This document shows positions 1 to 15,869 of a stretch of 15,900 nt of DNA, piece after piece (within the stretch, counting starts at the first letter, position 1; each line of letters starts with the position of its first letter). The stretch lies in the IMG/VR virus record IMGVR_UViG_2695420863_000009; one strand, 5' to 3'. The notes beneath the pieces were generated by a model, which saw nothing but the letters and a program-made list of their open reading frames with translations, was not told where the DNA came from and did no database searches. This DNA comes from a virus. Lineage: Duplodnaviria > Heunggongvirae > Uroviricota > Caudoviricetes. The position numbers and the translations under genes were made by a program.

Positions 1-241
1 TCTGACGGCGACGCCGCCCTGACAACATCATAGTGTTTAAATGCCATGAATCCTCCCGGCCGGGATAATATTGTGAGTAAAATGAGGAGCGGGCTGAAGT
101 CCGGAAGTTACAGGACAATGGCAGAAGAGAGACAACAGTCCGCAATACGAAAAAGGCCGCGCTATTGCGCAGAGTGATTACTGTCGGATATTATTCGCCA
201 GCTGAAATATTACTTCACGTTTTGTTGTTTATTCCTTGCCG

Positions 242-269
242 CCCGCGTCTCCCAGCGCGGGATTTTTTT
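242..269 (+). terminator. putative rho-independent terminator
   Basis: Stem cccgcg (242-247) / cgcggg (256-261) with 8-nt loop, followed by a 7-T run (263-269). The gene it would terminate lies outside or at the window edge. Confidence 0.4.
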
Positions 270-271
270 GT

Positions 272-299
272 CCATAAGAAAGCCCCTCCGGAGAGGGGC
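272..299 (-). terminator. putative terminator hairpin downstream of the tRNA cluster
   Basis: 7-bp stem gcccctc/gaggggc (282-299) with cgga loop; on the minus strand it is followed by tttctt. The T-run is weak. Confidence 0.3.
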
Positions 300-536
300 T
301 GGAGAGTGGCGCTATGTGCCATTGCATGGTGCCGGGTGCCTCCCGGTGAATTCAGTACCAGCACCTGAATCCGCGATTATCCCATATACCTACTCGCTGA
401 TTGCCCCTCCGCACAGGGGGATTCACCATGCCAGTTTCTTTTAACAAACTCCCCGCAAACCAGACAACAGTCAACCGCCTGAATTGTGAGACATTTAAAA
501 AAAAGGCCCGCAAAAGCGAGCCAGGGAAAATAAGTG

Positions 537-613
537 TGGCGCGTTGTACTGGATTCGAACCAGTGACCGATTGCTTAGAAGGCAATTGCTCTGTCCGGCT
601 GAGCTAACAACGC
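537..613 (-). tRNA. tRNA-Arg (anticodon TCT)
   Basis: Reverse complement folds as a canonical cloverleaf: perfect 7-bp acceptor stem GCGTTGT/ACAACGC, D-stem GCTC/GAGC, anticodon loop CTTCTAA, T-loop TTCGAAT, 3' CCA encoded. It resembles argO of Stx-type lambdoid phages (recollection). Confidence 0.8.
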
Positions 614-626
614 AGGATACAGATAA

Positions 627-703
627 TGGACCGCCTTCGGGGACCCGAACTCCGCGCAACCAGCTTCGAAAGCTGGCGCTCTTTCCTGATGAGCTAATGG
701 CGG
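627..703 (-). tRNA. putative tRNA-Arg (anticodon TCG), possibly degenerate
   Basis: Cloverleaf-like: D-stem GCTC/GAGC, anticodon arm CCAGC-TTTCGAA-GCTGG, CCA encoded. The acceptor stem (A-A at 6-67) and T-stem (A-C) each carry one mismatch, and the T-loop TTCGGGT is atypical. It sits in the position argN holds in Stx-type phages. Confidence 0.5.
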
Positions 704-710
704 TATGTGA

Positions 711-786
711 TGGTGGCCCTTGCTGGATTTGAACCAGCGACCTGGCGATTATGAGTCGCTCGCTCTCACCACTGAGCTAAAGGGCC
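711..786 (-). tRNA. tRNA-Ile2 (lysidine type) or tRNA-Met, anticodon CAT
   Basis: Cloverleaf with acceptor GGCCCTT/AAGGGCC, anticodon loop CTCATAA, T-loop TTCAAAT, CCA encoded. It closely resembles E. coli ileX / phage ileZ as I recall them. Confidence 0.8.
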
Positions 787-814
787 GGGTCAAAAAATAA
801 TAATCAGATGAAAA

Positions 815-1528
815 TCAATAATCAAGCCCTTGCCTGGATACATATCTGTCTGGCGGGAAGCCATAATAGCGGTGAAATACAGAAATAAAGTAGGACCAGC
901 TTGAATAACCGCATTTTTCTGCTACAGCCTGTCCATATCCATGCCGGGAACATAACATATTCACAGCAACACGCATCCGCTCTTCCAGCAACAAGCGACT
1001 GAACATGTGCCCTTCATTTTTCAGTTTTATCTTTAACAAACTCTCACTCATATGCAGGCGTAACGCAATCGCACCAAGCGTCCAGCTTGCTGATATATCT
1101 GTCTGAATTATCGCCCTGACTTTGGTACTTATACTGGATAAACATCCACTTAAAAATAATAATATCCGTTCATCTGATTCAAACAGCGACAGGCATGCCA
1201 TCATAAGAAACATATCCGTGGTATCTCCGGAAAATCTCTGGCTGGTAATTAAAGCCTCAGCCAACGCAGGGTTGTTGGGTTCCAGTGACAGATAAAGCGG
1301 AACGTCAGTCAGATGAGTTCTTGTCAGCTTATGCTGAATTTCCAGATATTGACTTACTATGGAATGGTTTATATCGAAAATTTTAACTTTGCCATAATGC
1401 ATAAGGAAAAGCGCCCTGATGCATTTGGTGGCCAGAACGACTGAGCCGGGCTTAAGTGACAACGTATCCTTTTCAAGAAAAATATTAATTGGGGAGCAAA
1501 CCATGATAACTGAACAGACAACAACCAT
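815..1528 (-). CDS. AraC-family transcriptional regulator (AppY/YdeO/GadX/PatE-like)
   Basis: 237-aa ORF. The C-terminal ~100 aa carry the AraC double-HTH signature (…SESLLKIKLKNEGHMFSRLLLEERMRVAVNMLC…AEKCGYSSWSYFISVFHRYYGFPP). The gene is AT-rich relative to the phage core and has no clear SD. Confidence 0.8.
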   Translation of the reverse strand: MVVVCSVIMVCSPINIFLEKDTLSLKPGSVVLATKCIRALFLMHYGKVKIFDINHSIVSQYLEIQHKLTRTHLTDVPLYLSLEPNNPALAEALITSQRFSGDTTDMFLMMACLSLFESDERILLFLSGCLSSISTKVRAIIQTDISASWTLGAIALRLHMSESLLKIKLKNEGHMFSRLLLEERMRVAVNMLCSRHGYGQAVAEKCGYSSWSYFISVFHRYYGFPPDRYVSRQGLDY

Positions 1529-1654
1529 TATAATTTTACTTTCATTAGCAATTGGTTAGTTCAATTATAGCCCCAAAAGGTAAATTATCATCAACACATA
1601 AGCAAAGGACTGACAGGTGCCGCTAACACCCACCAGCCGCCCATTTACCACAAA

Positions 1655-1679
1655 TAAAAAAGCCTTCAGGACTGAAGGC
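1655..1679 (-). terminator. rho-independent terminator
   Basis: Stem gccttca/tgaaggc (1662-1679) with ggac loop; on the minus strand it is followed by a 7-T run (plus-strand A-run 1655-1661). It overlaps the stop codon of the 1666..1863 ORF. Confidence 0.5.
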
Positions 1680-1863
1680 GTCTGTAACAACCGCACTGAT
1701 AGTCTGCCAGACCCGCCATAACAAGCTGGGTCAGTATTAACTGGCAGCGTTCGCGTGAAAGGTAAGTATTCTGCGCAATCTCCCCGACTGTCGCCGGTTC
1801 GGTGACGCTTAATTCATCAAACACAACTCTGGCGGTTTCTGTCATATCCTGCTGTTTCAGCAT
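1666..1863 (-). CDS. small hypothetical protein, possibly a winged-helix DNA-binding protein
   Basis: 65-aa ORF with ATG start and its own terminator. The central segment (TVGEIAQNTYLSRERCQLILTQLVMAGL) looks HTH-like. No family is confidently recognised and the SD is weak. Confidence 0.45.
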   Translation of the reverse strand: MLKQQDMTETARVVFDELSVTEPATVGEIAQNTYLSRERCQLILTQLVMAGLADYQCGCYRRLQS

Positions 1864-1984
1864 GTCTTTTTACCCTTTCCGGTTAACGTGACACACCAAT
1901 AACTCTTGCCGAAAAAGCCAGCAAGCTGAAAGACCTGTATTAATAACTACCAGCACATTTAACGCACTGCGCTACTTTGCGGGC

Positions 1985-2009
1985 ACAAAAAACCCGCTCA
2001 GAGGCGGGG
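1985..2009 (-). terminator. rho-independent terminator downstream of the CPBP gene
   Basis: Minus-strand stem cccgc/gcggg with 6-nt loop, followed by ttttttgtg (plus-strand A-run 1987-1992). Confidence 0.5.
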
Positions 2010-2149
2010 TCAAGCTATGCGGCGAAATAACCACTCTTAACAGCATACCTGATTTTTTACGTACGTAAATGCTTTGCCGTGCATATTTTTCATGCAAATG
2101 TCACGTCCTGCTATTTTTCAGTCTTATAAATTTAAAACCATAGAAAAAA

Positions 2150-2968
2150 TCAATTATGTTTTAAAAATGGATAGGTAAAGAATAACAAGTGACACAGATT
2201 CAAACCAAAATGGAAAAGGGTGGCAACCCACAAACGCCCACTCCACATCCATGACAATCCATACACAACACCAGATAACGTGGCAAATAATACAAGTAAA
2301 GCACCACCTGAATAGTGATAAAAACCAAACAACAAAGCCGCCACAATTAATGCAACCAATGGAGACGTTACTTCTGATAGCCGTGATTGAATATACCCTC
2401 TAAATAATGATTCCTCTGCCAGAGACACAAAAAACAAATTAGCCAATATAAACTCTGGCAACCACTCAGGAAAATGAATCTCTGGCTTTAATCCACCAAA
2501 AAAAACAGCCAAAAACAGGATAAGAGGAACAGAGAGCGACAGAGCCCCCCACTTCCACAAAGACACTTCTGATTTTACTTCTTTTTTAAACAAAGAAGAT
2601 GTACACAGGACTAACAAAAATGGCACCAGCGCTTTATCAAAATTAAAATACATTGTATAGGGAGTACTTTGAGGGCCAACAGTAACAGAATTTAGCACTA
2701 CAGGATTGTGAAACCCTGGCCATAGATGGAAAGATAATGCTATGGCTGATAAAACTATGCCAACTTCATATATAGATTTAGCCCAGGCGTTATATTTCCA
2801 GTTGAACTTCAAAATAATAAAAAAAACGATTGTAGCAACAAAAAATAACACCGACCAATCAATAATATCATTAAGCACAGCCAGGACAACAGACACCGTC
2901 AACAATGAAAAAGCCACTACCTTATGCCAACTGAGAGTTGACAGTGACAGTACTAACACAATCCACAT
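2150..2968 (-). CDS. CPBP-family intramembrane metalloprotease (CAAX protease / Abi domain)
   Basis: Polytopic membrane protein with the three CPBP motifs: EExxxR (SLAEESLFRGYIQSRL), FxxxH (LLFGFYHY) and HxxxN (HFGLNLCHLLFF). Strong SD (aaggag, 6 nt) before the ATG at 2968; the track ORF starts 6 nt upstream at a GTG. The gene is markedly AT-rich. Confidence 0.8.
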   Translation of the reverse strand: MWIVLVLSLSTLSWHKVVAFSLLTVSVVLAVLNDIIDWSVLFFVATIVFFIILKFNWKYNAWAKSIYEVGIVLSAIALSFHLWPGFHNPVVLNSVTVGPQSTPYTMYFNFDKALVPFLLVLCTSSLFKKEVKSEVSLWKWGALSLSVPLILFLAVFFGGLKPEIHFPEWLPEFILANLFFVSLAEESLFRGYIQSRLSEVTSPLVALIVAALLFGFYHYSGGALLVLFATLSGVVYGLSWMWSGRLWVATLFHFGLNLCHLLFFTYPFLKHN

Positions 2969-3119
2969 AAGCACTCCTTTTATTTAATGATGAAGATTGA
3001 TTATCAATATTTTCAATTCACCAGGCAACATTTTATCTACCTTCCACAATACATGACCATCAAAAAATAAACATGTTAATTATAAACACAGAAAACATAA
3101 CCCTCATCACTATATATCC

Positions 3120-3491
3120 CTACCGCATATCCATATCTAACCGGACATTCAGAGCCATAAGCATTCCTTCAATAATACCTTCCGCTTTATAAAGCCTTTT
3201 ACCAATAAGCCCATCAGAACATCTATGCTTACGTGCAAGAGCCATAAATGTCATTCCACCTACGTAATAATCCACCAACAAATCGTGCAAATACTGATTA
3301 TTCTTGTTTAATCGTGCCATACAACCACAAATTATCATGGCGTCATCATCAGAACACTGAGGACGTGATTTCACTTTAGTCGGGATTAATCCTTTAAAAC
3401 CAGCAGCTATCGAGGGCCATGTTACATCTTCATGATTATTTGCTGCCCATGCCCCCCATCGCTCAAGAACCATCTGGATATCACGCGCCAT
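3120..3491 (-). CDS. late-gene antiterminator Q (quuD-like)
   Basis: N-terminus [25 protein letters not shown]… and the CGCMARL cysteine motif match the DLP12 QuuD-type Q family as I recall it. Start taken at the ATG at 3491 with SD gaggtgg; the track ORF begins at a GTG 9 nt upstream. It follows rusA, as in DLP12. Confidence 0.7.
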
Positions 3492-3852
3492 CGTTACCAC
3501 CTCTGATTTCGTAAATCTTCACGCCCAGCCGTCCACCTGGCACAGGCTGACCGCGCACAATATTGATTTCATCAAACTGCTCGTCATCAATGAGCACTTC
3601 CGCATGCGTCAGCGCATCCAGCGGTGCTTTCAGAATGTTGTCCAGGTCACGGCGGCGCTTATCCGGTGGTTCTGCAATAATTTTTATTGCCAGCCGTCCG
3701 GACAGGCTTAATTTCAGCCGCTGCTGGCGAACAATAAGCGCCACAGCCCGGCGATAACGCTCACCGGCTTTTGATACAAAATATGTGCTGCCACGACGTC
3801 GCCAGTAGGTGTTCACCGTCGGCGGGTAAGGCAAAACAAACTCTATACGCAT
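3481..3852 (-). CDS. rusA: RusA Holliday-junction resolvase
   Basis: 123 aa with the RusA signatures (YPPTVNTYW…, RRRDLDN, DALT…DDEQ, GGRL). SD aagagg precedes the ATG. The 3' end overlaps the Q start. Confidence 0.85.
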
Positions 3853-3864
3853 CAGTAACCTCTT

Positions 3865-4914
3865 TTACCCGAGCACGCCGGTTGCAAAAGCGTGATCAAG
3901 AAAACGAAAAATTAAATCAACCTGGGAACCATGCTTTTCTTCGAACGCCAGCGGATCCGCATGAAGCTCGTTGTGATGCTCCCGACACAGCGGTAGCGTG
4001 AAAATATCGTGGGATTTTGTTCCCATTCCACCCTGACCATGACCAATCAGATGATGAGGATCGTCCGCTGGCTTACCACAACACGCACACGGCTGTGTCT
4101 TTACCCAGCGTGTGTATTTCTCATTTACCCAGAGGCGACGTTTAGGTCGTTTCATGAAGGATTCCGGAGACTCCGGATCAACGGCAATGCTGACCACCGT
4201 CTTTTCCTGTGGTGGGTTCTGTTGCTGGTGGGTGTGAGGCGGTAGCGCAATATTTTTTGTGCGCTGCTTCAGTATGCTGGTGGCGGTCTGTTCTCCCGGT
4301 ATGATGTCGCTTTCACGGTATACGGAGCGGATTTTTTCCGCCGGTAATCCCAGAGAACGACGCGATACTGCCTCAGGTAATGCGTCCACCACCTGATTGC
4401 AGACTGCCCACCAGGATAATTCAGCCAGCGATAATTCCCGTTCCTGTATGCCATTCATTGCGTGGCGGATGACGTCAATCATCCATGCTGACAGGTTTTG
4501 TTGAGCAAGTTGCTCAAGTGATTCGGATGTCTGGTCGCGCAGCTGGTTGTCGCAGTGCCAGCACAACACCATCGCGCCGGTACCGTAACGATGTATGACA
4601 GTTTCGCTGTGATGATAATCACCATGAGGCCACTGGCAGGATTTAACGTGACGTAATAACCAGTCAGACAGTGCACCAGCGCCACCAGCAGCACGAATCA
4701 CACGCTCATTGCTGAAAAATGGCAGTAATGATTTATCTTCCGCCAGCGGCTGGCGAACGGCAGGAACGACCCCGGACGGCAGATTACGCATGCTTTTCGG
4801 TTCAGACTCCACCAGCACCCTGCCGCCATGAAATACCCGCATGGATTCACGGCCTGGCTTAACGATAACCAGACCGAGTTCCGGTACCAGAACAGGTCGA
4901 AGTAATACCCGCAC
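3865..4914 (-). CDS. DUF968-family phage protein with C-terminal HNH-like zinc-binding motif
   Basis: 349-aa ORF with GTG start preceded by ggagg. The C-terminus carries CACCG…HHLIGHG…CREHHNELH (HNH-like), typical of the YdfU/DUF968 proteins found between the replication genes and Q. Confidence 0.7.
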   Translation of the reverse strand: MRVLLRPVLVPELGLVIVKPGRESMRVFHGGRVLVESEPKSMRNLPSGVVPAVRQPLAEDKSLLPFFSNERVIRAAGGAGALSDWLLRHVKSCQWPHGDYHHSETVIHRYGTGAMVLCWHCDNQLRDQTSESLEQLAQQNLSAWMIDVIRHAMNGIQERELSLAELSWWAVCNQVVDALPEAVSRRSLGLPAEKIRSVYRESDIIPGEQTATSILKQRTKNIALPPHTHQQQNPPQEKTVVSIAVDPESPESFMKRPKRRLWVNEKYTRWVKTQPCACCGKPADDPHHLIGHGQGGMGTKSHDIFTLPLCREHHNELHADPLAFEEKHGSQVDLIFRFLDHAFATGVLG

Positions 4915-4915
4915 A

Positions 4916-5194
4916 TTACCTCCAGATCCGTTGCTGGAATGTGCGGGACGGACGCGGTGGCCGTTCGGAGTAAGGGAGCCTGACGGAGATTATCCAGTGA
5001 CGGTAGTCGAGGCTAAGGGCTTTTTTAACCTCGCATCCGCGCCTGCGGTAACACTGAATGAGCCATTCGGCCTGTTCTTCAGTGCATGGGGGATGCTGGT
5101 ACCAGTCAGATTTGAATGCGTGAAAACACCGTCCGCGCCTGCTGGCAAAGACGGCAGAATCATCAGAATTGTATAATTTGGTATCGTGCGCCAT
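4916..5194 (-). CDS. hypothetical phage protein
   Basis: The ORF runs to 5275 in the track, but its first 27 codons overlap a terminator, so the start is placed at the internal ATG at 5194. Cys/His-rich; no family recognised. Its stop abuts the DUF968 start. Confidence 0.45.
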   Translation of the reverse strand: MAHDTKLYNSDDSAVFASRRGRCFHAFKSDWYQHPPCTEEQAEWLIQCYRRRGCEVKKALSLDYRHWIISVRLPYSERPPRPSRTFQQRIWR

Positions 5195-5264
5195 CGGTTG
5201 TCTCTGCTGGCGCAGCAGGTGCCAGTTGTTCAGGCTGGCGTGCGAATTGTAAACCAGAATGCCA

Positions 5265-5292
5265 GGAAAAAACAAAACCCGCCGAAGCGGGT
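5265..5292 (-). terminator. rho-independent terminator of the hok cassette
   Basis: Minus-strand stem aacccgc/gcgggtt with ttcg loop, followed by ttttgtttttt. Confidence 0.55.
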
Positions 5293-5361
5293 TAAGTGCG
5301 GGTGCGTTGAGGATGCCTGATTCATCAGAGGTGGCGAGGGATTTCTCCCCCGCCGGGTCTC

Positions 5362-5517
5362 TTACTCCTCAGGTTCGTAAGCTGTGAAGACAGCGACCTC
5401 CGTCTGGCCGGTTCGGACTCGTACCTCGCAGAGGTCTTTCCTCGTTACCAGTGCCGTCACTATGACGGTTAAACAGATGACGATCAGGGCGATTAACATC
5501 GCCTTTTGCTGCTTCAT
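5362..5517 (-). CDS. hokD: Hok/Gef-family type I toxin (small membrane peptide)
   Basis: 51-aa product MKQQKAMLIALIVICLTVIVTALVTRKDLCEVRVRTGQTEVAVFTAYEPEE, which is near-identical to my recollection of RelF/HokD. SD aaggag precedes the ATG at 5517. The track ORF extends 19 codons further upstream in frame. Confidence 0.85.
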   Translation of the reverse strand: MKQQKAMLIALIVICLTVIVTALVTRKDLCEVRVRTGQTEVAVFTAYEPEE

Positions 5518-5732
5518 AGCCTGCTTCTCCTTGCCTTTCGGCACGTAAGAGGCTAACCTACGTTTGTGAAGCATAGATTGGGCCTCAGATTAATGTTAAG
5601 CGTCTTGCAGGACGCGTAATGTTAACTGGGGCTTTTCTCTGTCTGCCTTACGGTGGCATGCCCGAGGCAGACAGCCTCAAGCACCCGCAGCAATTCTACT
5701 TAACTCTCGCTTTACCGCAAACCGTTTTTACC

Positions 5733-5754
5733 CGATATGGGAATTCCCATATCG
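5733..5754. promoter_or_regulatory. perfect 22-bp palindrome (candidate protein-binding site)
   Basis: cgatatgggaa|ttcccatatcg is exactly self-complementary and has no flanking T-run on either strand. It lies about 215 nt upstream of the hok ATG. Confidence 0.35.
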
Positions 5755-5762
5755 TAATGAAT

Positions 5763-5867
5763 TCAGTTCCCTAGTCGATCCATCAAAAACACAACCAGGC
5801 AGTAAACGCCCACAACAGCAACAACAGCCAGCGCACCTTCCATTGCCAGTGATATATCATCCGACAT
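5763..5867 (-). CDS. putative 34-aa hydrophobic micro-protein
   Basis: ATG preceded by a strong SD (aaggaggg, 4 nt). Product MSDDISLAMEGALAVVAVVGVYCLVVFLMDRLGN has one predicted TM helix. Below the track's 60-aa cut-off. Confidence 0.35.
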   Translation of the reverse strand: MSDDISLAMEGALAVVAVVGVYCLVVFLMDRLGN

Positions 5868-5908
5868 ATTCCCTCCTTTGGTGTTAATCCCGGCGAACGT
5901 TTTTACCC

Positions 5909-5986
5909 TCACCGACAAATAACATATACTAAAAAAGCGATAGCCATAGCAACGCCTGTAATTGCAAATGCTTCAGGCCAGTTCAT
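5909..5986 (-). CDS. putative 25-aa hydrophobic micro-protein
   Basis: ATG overlaps the stop of the upstream DUF551 gene (ATGA) and is preceded by aggagg. Product MNWPEAFAITGVAMAIAFLVYVICR. Confidence 0.3.
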   Translation of the reverse strand: MNWPEAFAITGVAMAIAFLVYVICR

Positions 5987-6852
5987 TGGCGCACCTCCTG
6001 CGGCGGTTCTGGTAGAGGCATCCAGTGTGATGGTATCCACGACGCACCAGGTATTATCCACCCATCATTAGCGTCAGGATGCCCCGGGATGTAAGTCGCC
6101 CATTTCATTCGCCAGTCACCTTTCCTGCCAAAATCCCTGGCAACAAGAACGGCTGTTTTGGTATCCGGCATTCGCTCACTACAGCTTATCCAACTATCCG
6201 GAGTTACCGGATAGTTGCCCGATAGTGCATTCTGCTCCAGTGATGCTTTTACAAACCACGCTGCCTGAACTATAACGCCATGAATCCAGCGCAAATCAGC
6301 ATCGCGATCTTTCTTTTTCATCTTTTCGCCACTTAAGGCCTTGCTTATGTGGCTGCGTGCCAGGTCTTCATGTAATTCCTTCGCCTCCTCAATGGTGAAA
6401 CCACCAGGCAGAAGAGCCGGAGTTACCGGAGAGCTGGTTGACGCTTCCGGGATTTTCCGAAAATTATTGGTTGACGAATCTTTATTTTCCCGAAAGTTTC
6501 CGGACTGAAACATGGCTTCGCGGCAATCGTTCCAGCCTGTAGCGTATGCAGCCGCTTTGCTGCTGCCTTCAACTGGCGCATCCTGCCAATACATTTCTTC
6601 CGGCACTATCGGCGCTGGAGGGGCGGCAAATAGATATCCGCCAAAGTCAGGAAGCTCTCTAATGGCCTGTACAAATTTTTGTTTGCCTACGTCAACCCCT
6701 AATGGGTAATGAGCTATAATCTTTGCCACCGGCTCTGCTTCCAGCGATGCCAGCGCAATCCGTGCCAGTTCCATTTGTTCACCACGGGTAAGCCCGTTTT
6801 CAAGCGGATTTTTAATGAACAATTCAATACGTTCTTTGGTAATAGTGGTCAT
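5983..6852 (-). CDS. DUF551 domain-containing phage protein
   Basis: 289 aa with SD aaggag before the ATG. The C-terminal ~70 aa (…PDSWISCSERMPDT…GWIIPGASWIPSHWMPLPEPP) match the DUF551 pattern as I recall it. Confidence 0.6.
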   Translation of the reverse strand: MTTITKERIELFIKNPLENGLTRGEQMELARIALASLEAEPVAKIIAHYPLGVDVGKQKFVQAIRELPDFGGYLFAAPPAPIVPEEMYWQDAPVEGSSKAAAYATGWNDCREAMFQSGNFRENKDSSTNNFRKIPEASTSSPVTPALLPGGFTIEEAKELHEDLARSHISKALSGEKMKKKDRDADLRWIHGVIVQAAWFVKASLEQNALSGNYPVTPDSWISCSERMPDTKTAVLVARDFGRKGDWRMKWATYIPGHPDANDGWIIPGASWIPSHWMPLPEPPQEVRQ

Positions 6853-6862
6853 GTGTTACTCC

Positions 6863-7126
6863 TTAACCCGCAGTGCTTTCAACTGATGAGGGGAACAAAA
6901 TCTTTTCATCAAACCCTGCATTCATATCATGAACAGCAACACACCAATCCATCGACGAACGATTATCAAGAGCCTCCATGATTTCATCCATGCGGCGTAG
7001 GTCATACAGGTAAATGCTTTTATCGCCAATGGTGTAAAAGCCAATTTTTTTCGGTGATGGACAGCGATCAAGAACTTCCTGTAATTCGTTCAACCATGCC
7101 CGTTCTTTTTTTGTCAAAGTTGCCAT
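6863..7126 (-). CDS. hypothetical phage protein
   Basis: Start placed at the internal ATG (MATLTKKERAW…) preceded by aagga; the track ORF extends 30 codons upstream without an RBS. Confidence 0.5.
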   Translation of the reverse strand: MATLTKKERAWLNELQEVLDRCPSPKKIGFYTIGDKSIYLYDLRRMDEIMEALDNRSSMDWCVAVHDMNAGFDEKILFPSSVESTAG

Positions 7127-7377
7127 ATCAGTTTTCCTTATACGGATTAATTTTATTGTGCAGTGTGTTGAATGACGCCCATACCACGTCGTTATACAAT
7201 TCAATAACTGGCTCAATTATTTTTCCGATTATCCAGACTAGGATTAACGGGGATATCGGTATCATCAACACGATAAACAGAATGAGAAACAGAAATTCTG
7301 TTGTTCTACTCTTTCGCGGATATTTTTTCTAAATAATGTGACCATTCATTACCGCCCTTTCGGGCGGCCTCCTGACA

Positions 7378-7590
7378 TTAATCGTTGTGATAACTCATAG
7401 CTTCATTTGCAGCATCAACTGGATCAACCTCCCTCCAGCAATAATTTGGGTCGGCTCCTTCAGGCGTCCACGGTTCTAATTCATTTTTTGCCGCATTCTC
7501 ATCGCCAGTAATTTTAAAAATCTGCTCAGAGAATTTTCTTGCCCACTCGTTATATTTTTCCGCATTAATGGCTTTCTGTGTATTTAACAT
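7378..7590 (-). CDS. hypothetical phage protein
   Basis: 70-aa ORF with SD ggagg before the ATG. A GC hairpin with GAAA loop (7355-7372) sits just downstream of the stop. Confidence 0.5.
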   Translation of the reverse strand: MLNTQKAINAEKYNEWARKFSEQIFKITGDENAAKNELEPWTPEGADPNYCWREVDPVDAANEAMSYHND

Positions 7591-7640
7591 AAATACACCT
7601 CCAGTTAAGGATTAGATTTTATTTACAGCGCTAAATTTAT

Positions 7641-14488: not shown

Positions 14489-15019
14489 GGTCAGGTGGAG
14501 TGCGTGCGCCGGACACGGGTGAGCATCCGGCACTGACAGTTTACTGAAAGGATATGTCCCTGAAAAGTCAGGGCATAACGCGAAAGCGCACGGCGAAATT
14601 GGTCTCTCTGTACGGTGTCGTTAAATTTAGTTCGACCGTGCGCTTCCGGTTGTGGCACTCCGCGAAATGGCGCGGCGGTAAGTATGGCTGGGGTTTCCTC
14701 CATTGCTCCAGAAAATGCACCGGGTTGTCAGGTTGACCATACGCTTAAGTGACAACCCCGCTACAACGCCCTCTGTTATCAATTTTCTGGTGACATTTGG
14801 CGGTATCAGTTTTACTCCGTGACTGCTCTGCCGCCCTTTTTAAAGTGAATTTTGTGATGCGGTGAATGCGGCTATGCGCACGCGGAACAGTTAAAGCAGT
14901 AAGGCGGTATTTTACGGGCGTAACGAGCATCAACTAACCCGGCGTTAATTGTTAACTGGTTAACGTCACCTGGAGGCACCAGGCACTGCATCACAAAATT
15001 CATTGTTGAGGACGCGATA
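14489..15019 (+). repeat. repeat copy 2: structured leader + dicF + dicB 5'-UTR
   Basis: Aligns with copy 1 across its length with scattered substitutions and a small insertion. Confidence 0.8.
14784..14836 (+). ncRNA. dicF: DicF-like sRNA, copy 2 (G-to-A variant)
   Basis: Same 53 nt as copy 1 except A at position 12 (GTGACATTTGG vs GTGACGTTTGG); followed by TTTTT. Confidence 0.75.
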
Positions 15020-15574: not shown

Positions 15575-15869
15575 GACACCGGGTTGTCAGGTTGACCATA
15601 CGCTTAAGTGACAACCCCGCTGCAACGCCCTCTGTTATCAATTTTCTGGTGACGTTTGGCGGTATCAGTTTTACTCCGTGACTGCTCTGCCGCCCTTTTT
15701 AAAGTGAATTTTGTGATGCGGTGAATGCGGCTGAGCGCACGCGGAACAGTTAAAACCAAAAACAGTGTTATGGGGGGATTCTCTGTATCCGGCGTTAATT
15801 GTTAACTGGTTAACGTCACCTGGAGGCACCAGGCACCGCATCACAAAATTCATTGTTGAGGACGCGATA
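15575..15869 (+). repeat. repeat copy 3 (partial leader + dicF + dicB 5'-UTR)
   Basis: Identical to copy 1 over the shared region 12785-13032, then continues into a dicB start. Confidence 0.8.
15643..15695 (+). ncRNA. dicF: DicF-like sRNA, copy 3
   Basis: Identical to copy 1; followed by TTTTT. Confidence 0.75.

Follow-up and report, generated by a model that had tools for sequence, protein, structure and literature searches.

The 15,900-nucleotide (nt) stretch analysed here, the Caudoviricetes virus record IMGVR_UViG_2695420863_000009 (hereafter the window), carries on its minus strand an open reading frame (ORF) of 237 codons for an AraC-family regulator (815-1528), preceded by an ORF of 65 codons (1666-1863), both ORFs being as the initial annotation had placed them, and followed by three adjoining tRNA genes (537-786). 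In the direction of transcription the locus begins with a gene for an antiterminator Q of the QuuD/Q933W type (3120-3500; Pfam Phage_antitermQ, E=4.9e-52) and continues with a cassette of low GC content (2070-3119, 36% GC) in which lies the gene for a 274-residue CPBP/Rce1-like intramembrane protease (2150-2974, 38% GC; Pfam Rce1-like, E=1.4e-19; phrog_13291). Next come a putative late promoter PR' (2042-2069) with a first intrinsic terminator t1 (1987-2008), the 65-residue ORF with a second intrinsic terminator t2 that overlaps its stop codon (1656-1679), the cassette with the AraC gene (790-1591) and the tRNA cluster ileZ (CAT)-argN (TCG)-argO (TCT), which was located by ARAGORN and Rfam and is named here as in prophage Sp4 of Escherichia coli O157:H7 Sakai. 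As detailed below, the AraC gene is psrA, a prophage regulator that has already been characterised, and the comparisons place it, together with the 65-residue ORF and the tRNAs, downstream of the predicted PR'.

Read from its upstream ATG, the Sakai Sp4 gene ecs1087 encodes a protein identical to the window's regulator at 236 of 237 residues, with a threonine at position 134 in the window and an alanine in Sakai; this is the closest characterised homologue for which the initial annotation had called. The gene was named psrA, for prophage-encoded secretion regulator A, by the Tree laboratory, which named the Psr family (PMC13502914). As judged from the protein sequence, the AraC gene of the window is psrA and the locus an ordinary, known one. 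A second Sakai copy, ECs2191 in prophage Sp11, shares 214 of 237 residues (90.3%) with the window protein, which fits the published identity of 90% between PsrA and PsrB (PMC10877973, PMC8565820), and PsrB (z2104) is most likely ECs2191. Sakai Sp6, Sp9 and Sp10, as well as the CP-933N equivalent of strain EDL933, were searched for psrA or psrB and held none; the second copy is that of Sp11.

Profile and structure comparisons define the relationships of the protein further. In Pfam, HTH_18 (36.6 bits, gathering score 33.6, residues 155-230) and HTH_AraC (35.4 bits, gathering score 26.6) are both above their gathering scores, so that the helix-turn-helix (HTH) assignment proposed at the outset withstands a profile search. 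The best NCBIfam relatives are YdeO and GadX, and the closest solved structures are the DNA-binding domain of GadX (3mkl; phmmer E=4e-19) and Rns. Identity amounts to 39% with GadX, 37% with ECs0287 (presumed to be PatE), 35% with GadW, 31% with YdeO and 29% with AppY, in agreement with the AppY/YdeO/GadX/PatE group to which the regulator had first been assigned. The homology to YdeO, GadW, AppY and ECs0287 spans the full length from residue 1 and includes a common N-terminal M..VCSVI motif, whereas GadX lacks the motif and matches residues 87-234 only. As the scores stay below the NCBIfam equivalog cut-offs (104 vs 348 bits for YdeO, 90 vs 500 bits for GadX), PsrA is a paralogue rather than an orthologue of the YdeO/GadX-type regulators. 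The DNA-binding domain of an AlphaFold2 (AF2) model superimposes on 3mkl with a target-normalised template modelling (TM) score of 0.85-0.88 at 42-43% identity. These sequence relationships make PsrA an AraC/XylS activator with two domains, within the GadX/GadW/YdeO/AppY/PatE clade. Sakai annotates both psr genes as proteins of 195 residues that start at an internal ATG (ECs1087, L003:28804-29391; ECs2191, L014:933-1520). The reading of 237 residues is the correct one, because homology begins at residue 1 with the M..VCSVI motif and the YdeO profile aligns to residues 1-229.

What PsrA does has been described by others. Deletion of psrA raises type III secretion, PsrA and PsrB act by raising GadE and YhiF, and PsrB, which binds at the promoters of hdeA and gadE, improves acid survival (reviewed in PMC10877973, PMC8565820). 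In Sakai, psrA is transcribed, is repressed in an hnrS mutant and is induced along with gadE by a pulse of the small RNA (sRNA) HnrS, within an HnrS/Hha axis (PMC13502914). On this literature the window's PsrA would switch on gadE, the master gene of acid resistance, and yhiF, and GadE in turn would raise acid resistance and repress the enterocyte effacement locus (LEE). The suggestion in the initial annotation that such a regulator rewires host regulons was thus right, and for PsrA already known.

The limits of the cassette that carries psrA are given by phages with different cargo at the same place. Where the window has the AraC gene behind the 65-residue gene, Sp9 and Stx2a phages such as Stx2a_1447 have a DNA methylase gene, with the same tRNAs after it, and the homology of the methylase-carrying Sp9 and Stx2a_1447 to the window is restricted to 496-789 and 1592/1594-1995/2065. 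This gap delimits a psr cassette of 802 bp (790-1591), which holds a candidate promoter, the 5' untranslated region, psrA and 25 nt more. GC content is 42% for the psrA coding sequence and 40% for the cassette, against 53% for the phage backbone. By these comparisons of sequence, psrA is horizontally swapped cargo, and a single hot-spot takes either psrA or the DNA methylase as its cassette. Just inside the cassette edge at 1591/1592 lies a candidate sigma-70 promoter (1564-1591) with -35 ATGATA (1591-1586), a 16-nt spacer and -10 TATAAT (1569-1564), which with 10 of 12 matches has the top score of the region in our promoter scan. Its -10 hexamer is invariant across the psr cassettes of Sp11 and Stx2k, and over the 63 nt of promoter and 5' untranslated region the window and Sp11 differ at a single position. 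The terminator scan revealed no convincing terminator of psrA's own ahead of the tRNA-Ile gene (786). Of the features of a moron, psrA thus has discrete boundaries, a GC content of 40% and a promoter-like site, while a terminator of its own before tRNA-Ile was not found.

A scan for hairpins followed by T-runs gave 9 sites in 2.9 kb, compared to 3.2 ± 1.7 in shuffled sequence, and t1 and t2 were further defined by RNA folding. The t2 hairpin (1679-1662(-)) consists of GCCUUCA-GUCC-UGAAGGC, with a stem of 7 bp, followed by U6AUUU, and is conserved in Sp4, Sp11, Stx2a_1447 and Stx2k. The t1 hairpin (2008-1993(-)), CCCGC-CUCUGA-GCGGG followed by U6, is conserved in DLP12/434B, PA-2, Stx2a_1447, Stx2k and the 933W-type Stx2a phage P13374; for the CPBP gene, too, it is the first terminator downstream. 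Both hairpins lie within the ranges in which the initial annotation had seen terminators for the two ORFs, but they flank the 65-residue gene, t1 ahead of it and t2 after its stop codon, and neither belongs to psrA.

Upstream of t1 lies an element that we recognised by comparison with other lambdoid phages. In P13374, DLP12/434B and PA-2, sequence that adjoins Q or lies downstream of it is 75-85% identical to the segment 2069-1988(-). In P13374 the element begins within the last codons of q; in DLP12 (seen in recombinant phage 434B) and PA-2 it follows an inverted porin gene and precedes the holin gene by ~120 nt; and in Stx2a_1447 it comes after two inverted genes. P13374 has TTTACG-N16-TATCAT, and a start 7 nt downstream leaves 257 nt to the end of tR', in agreement with the length of 258 nt reported for the PR'-tR' transcript of Shiga toxin (Stx) phages (PMC7547250). 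Because the homologous promoter of P13374 reproduces this leader, PR' is placed at 2069-2042 in the window, with -35 TTTACG (2069-2064), a 16-nt spacer, -10 TATGCT (2047-2042) and a start near 2035, from which t1 would occupy about +28 to +49. From this homology we infer that the conserved element 2069-1987 (-) is the late promoter PR'. An alternative -10 of TAAAAAAT, with TATGCT as a pause element, was considered, and the length check in P13374 (257 against 258 nt) favours TTTACG with TATCAT/TATGCT.

The window's Q is 86% identical to QuuD of DLP12, 83% to Q of P13374 and 46% to Q of Stx2a_1447. In Sp9, Sp11 and Stx2k, which have unrelated types of Q, the sequence upstream of the terminator is unrelated to that of the window. 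The element (1987-2069 (-)) always accompanies a Q of the QuuD/Q933W type, and in the window, as in DLP12, PA-2 and Stx2a_1447, unrelated cargo of 1-2.9 kb stands between the two; the junction between Q and PR' thus appears to be a cargo hot-spot. If PR' is placed correctly, the CPBP cassette has been inserted between Q and PR', and the late transcript has the 65-residue gene as its first ORF. The same placement puts psrA and the tRNAs inside the late unit, where stx sits in Stx phages, and leaves only the CPBP gene outside it.

Two sRNAs were sought in this region and rejected. The 3' seed region of StxS from 933W-type phages finds no match in the window even at 3 mismatches, and only the PR'-proximal part is shared. 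HnrS, the prophage sRNA that acts indirectly on psrA, was considered as an sRNA upstream of the 65-residue gene but is absent from the window; the 15 nt that, as published, are complementary to the mazF end located it in Sakai Sp9 and Sp10, where it follows the lysis cassette on the strand that does not carry the late genes (about 22640-22700 (-) of L008 and about 25940-26000 (-) of L007).

The initial annotation had read the region as independently transcribed cargo rather than as a late operon, and in its full form such a reading takes the CPBP, 65-residue and AraC genes as three cargo genes acquired elsewhere, each with its own promoter and terminator, outside the late operon. Two intrinsic terminators do part the three genes, and psrA and the CPBP gene are low-GC, swappable cassettes with promoter-like sites, so that separate cargo and low GC content describe these two well. 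The description breaks down at the 65-residue gene, the coding sequence of which has 51% GC, close to the 53% of the backbone, and which lacks the moron features of composition and own promoter. Where promoters had been anticipated, in 1529-1655 and 1864-1984, the scan found the psrA site (1591-1564) in the former but none with at least 9 of 12 matches in the latter. Moreover, the 65-residue gene follows Q in phages of three Q types with differing cargo, psrA is without a terminator of its own, and the PR'-like element (2069-2042), placed by comparison with 933W-type phages and DLP12/PA-2, would leave the 65-residue gene, psrA and the tRNAs all behind that promoter, contrary to the exclusion of a late operon. 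We therefore regard three independent cargo genes as an improbable account of the locus.

The 65-residue ORF is, by its conservation, a real small phage gene. Its product belongs to phrog_331 (E=6e-37) and has 295 homologues in Escherichia, Shigella, Salmonella, Klebsiella, Citrobacter and Buttiauxella, with 77-100% identity among the 120 listed; the label 'TrmB family regulator' attached to relatives is an annotation label only. In Pfam the protein stays below the gathering scores (TrmB, 17.8 vs 25.6 bits, E=0.003; MarR_2, 14.1 vs 27), and there is no NCBIfam match. The best AF2 model has a predicted local distance difference test (pLDDT) score of 89 and an H1-H2-H3-beta-hairpin topology, the remaining four models scoring 60-65. 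With this model as query, Foldseek retrieved winged-HTH domains from IclR, MarR and O-methyltransferase proteins, E being about 1e-3 and the query-normalised TM score 0.7-0.8 (top E 1.4e-3 with TM 0.69; IclR/MarR domains with TM about 0.8 at E 3e-3). Thus, the protein is plausibly a winged helix and probably binds nucleic acid. The idea of a small DNA-binding protein in the initial annotation is weakly supported, by the sub-threshold profile matches and the predicted fold. That it acts as an uncharacterised late-phase DNA- or RNA-binding regulator, perhaps tuning late-gene, toxin or host expression, is a tentative and rather doubtful extension of the model.

A different reading of the same stretch, that the ORF is untranslated and 1656-2035 is a long non-coding PR' leader or sRNA like the 258-nt StxS precursor, takes its appeal from the position of the stretch between the putative PR' and a strong terminator, as for StxS, and from the Sakai Sp4 copy (ECs1086, L003:28344-28583), which, unlike the intact copy of the window, has a 1-nt deletion, so that its final 16 residues, where the wing is predicted, are replaced and the ORF runs on to 79 codons. 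Synonymous codon differences nevertheless equal or exceed non-synonymous ones in 9 of 10 pairwise comparisons, a protein of 63-65 residues is held at 77-98% identity across several genera, an AAAGGG-type ribosome-binding site precedes the ATG, the top-scoring AF2 model folds as a compact winged helix, and the StxS seed has no homologue in the window. A non-coding leader is accordingly very improbable.

The psrA gene is present in 726 of 5426 complete E. coli genomes, with a median of 2 copies per genome. Between the window psrA and the Sp11 gene (L014:933-1646), non-synonymous codon differences (23) outnumber synonymous ones (14), which suggests relaxed or diversifying selection on the protein. 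That the regulator is an inactive remnant, silent or a pseudogene, can be all but set aside: related strains have a defective form of the prophage (the lysis genes of O111 11128 abut an insertion sequence (IS) element, effector genes and a tRNA-Ser gene, and head and tail genes are not annotated) and H-NS commonly silences AT-rich genes, but the ORF is intact and one residue off ECs1087, which is named psrA and transcribed in Sakai, the reviews report a phenotype for the deletion of psrA (PMC10877973, PMC8565820), and in all 726 psrA-bearing genomes at least 80% of the gene is covered at one place or more, with the listed copies annotated as coding sequences, contrary to the pseudogenes in homologues that the initial annotation had named as a refutation.

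The wider setting agrees with an Sp4-type prophage. Positions 1-5716 of the window are 98.8% identical to Sakai Sp4, and 1-12200 are 99.8% identical to a prophage of O111:H- strain 11128. Upstream of the CPBP gene and Q on the minus strand, Pfam identifies the genes for RusA and a DUF968 protein as well, and the order in Sp4 is DUF968, RusA, Q, CPBP, small ORF, psrA, ileZ-argN-argO, nanS-p, IS629, pchA and lysis genes. Over a 274-column alignment the CPBP protein and Sakai ECs1085 share 271 identical residues. In the near-identical loci the tRNAs are followed by nanS-p, lysis genes and a pch regulator, and in O111 11128 and Sakai Sp4 the PerC/PchA gene and TccP2/EspV lie downstream, beyond the left end of the window, in keeping with a Psr family that lambdoid prophages alone encode and that goes together with pch regulators and effector loci. 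Taken together, positions 500-3500 (-) of the window very probably form the region of late regulation in a lambdoid prophage of Sp4 type, from attaching-effacing/Shiga-toxigenic E. coli, in which the AraC gene is psrA.

Several points weigh against this reading. The psrA promoter and PR' were placed by consensus and comparison and are predicted start sites. The hairpin homologous to t1 lies inside the 258-nt transcript reported for Stx phages, and t1 may therefore be weak or leaky. The N-terminal domain of PsrA is modelled with low confidence (pLDDT about 55-70), and because this part of the model is poor, a fold search with full-length PsrA returned Rns, CsvR and ToxT at low TM only. Finally, the reviews put psrA at z1789 in O-island 50 (CP-933N) (PMC10877973, PMC8565820), in conflict with ecs1087 in Sp4 (PMC13502914), and in Sakai Sp6 and in the potC-adjacent prophage of re-sequenced EDL933, the CP-933N equivalent, no AraC gene was found between Q and nanS-p; the z1789/O-island 50 mapping probably goes back to the original assembly of EDL933.

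With the late-regulatory reading, transcription of the locus could proceed as follows. In the lysogen, psrA would be transcribed from its own promoter (1591-1564), with t1 and t2 shielding it from transcription that starts at PR' or comes from the CPBP gene, and should t1 be leaky, the stronger t2 (1679-1656) would be an effective barrier. psrA may also be subject to silencing by H-NS/Hha in the lysogen, consistent with its AT-richness and the HnrS data. Upon induction, RNA polymerase modified by Q would start from PR', pass t1 and t2 and co-transcribe the 65-residue gene, psrA, the tRNAs and the lysis genes, in the way in which Stx phages express the stx genes from the equivalent site. The 65-residue protein would be made from the late transcript or by PR' read-through of t1, and could be made at low level in lysogens if PR' transcripts pass a weak t1.

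The window holds further RNA elements. The tRNA gene at 711-786 (-) is called tRNA-Met (CAT) by ARAGORN and ileZ, a tRNA-Ile with a modified CAT anticodon, in RefSeq and Sakai. Between the tRNA cluster, which it directly follows, and the start of nanS-p at 1-47, the sRNA STnc100 gives a strong Rfam match at 270-460 (-) (138 bits vs a gathering score of 47). Further away are a sok antitoxin RNA (5512-5686 (-), 117 bits), part of a toxin-antitoxin locus of hokD type for which the near-identical O111 prophage has an annotation, and a sub-threshold isrK-like match at 5272-5353. The sRNA DicF occurs three times (~77 bits each) at 12851-12902, 14785-14836 and 15644-15695 (+), within 3 kb of the prophage early-left region, the copies sitting in repeated blocks that match one and the same stretch of Sp4. 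No Rfam match was found within 1529-2150, and PADLOC gave no meaningful defence-system match for PsrA, the 65-residue protein or the CPBP protein.

PsrA ties prophage carriage to two central traits of enterohaemorrhagic E. coli, acid resistance and the timing of type III secretion, and knowledge of PsrA itself is unchanged by the present analysis. Its correct naming matters for annotating this prophage, as RefSeq has only 'helix-turn-helix domain-containing protein' and older records are cut to 195 residues. What the comparisons add concerns organisation: a predicted PR' that is parted from Q by cargo, a hot-spot at which psrA and a methylase gene alternate, and a conserved small gene, with a predicted winged-helix product, that would head the late transcript. 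In many lambdoid prophages this phrog_331 gene comes first among the ORFs behind the presumed late promoter, and in many Stx2 phages it lies directly upstream of the methylase-tRNA-stx2 block.

In light of known systems, a close parallel is ECs2191 of Sp11, most likely PsrB, the gene of which likewise occupies a cassette between the 65-residue gene and ileZ with the same -10 TATAAT, at a locus that differs from the window by another type of Q and by lacking the CPBP cassette. The small gene has its counterparts in ECs1779 and ECs2192 (phrog_331/'TrmB family transcriptional regulator'), which are 92-98% identical to the 65-residue protein (61-64 of 65 residues) and stand in the same place ahead of the cargo cassette. 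PatE, AppY, YdeO, GadW and GadX, regulators of acid resistance with chromosomal or prophage-borne genes, share with PsrA the C-terminal double HTH, and gadE with the acid fitness island is the point at which they all meet, but PatE and AppY, unlike psrA, occupy other positions in their prophages. The 933W-type Stx phages, arranged as Q - PR' - tR'/StxS - tRNAs - stx, resemble the window in the homologous -35 and -10 of PR', in the first hairpin and in the same ileZ-argN-argO cluster. In the window, by contrast, the CPBP gene lies between Q and PR', the 3' part of StxS and its tR' are absent, the 65-residue gene and psrA are present, and the tRNAs are followed by nanS-p, whereas in 933W-type phages they are followed by stx.

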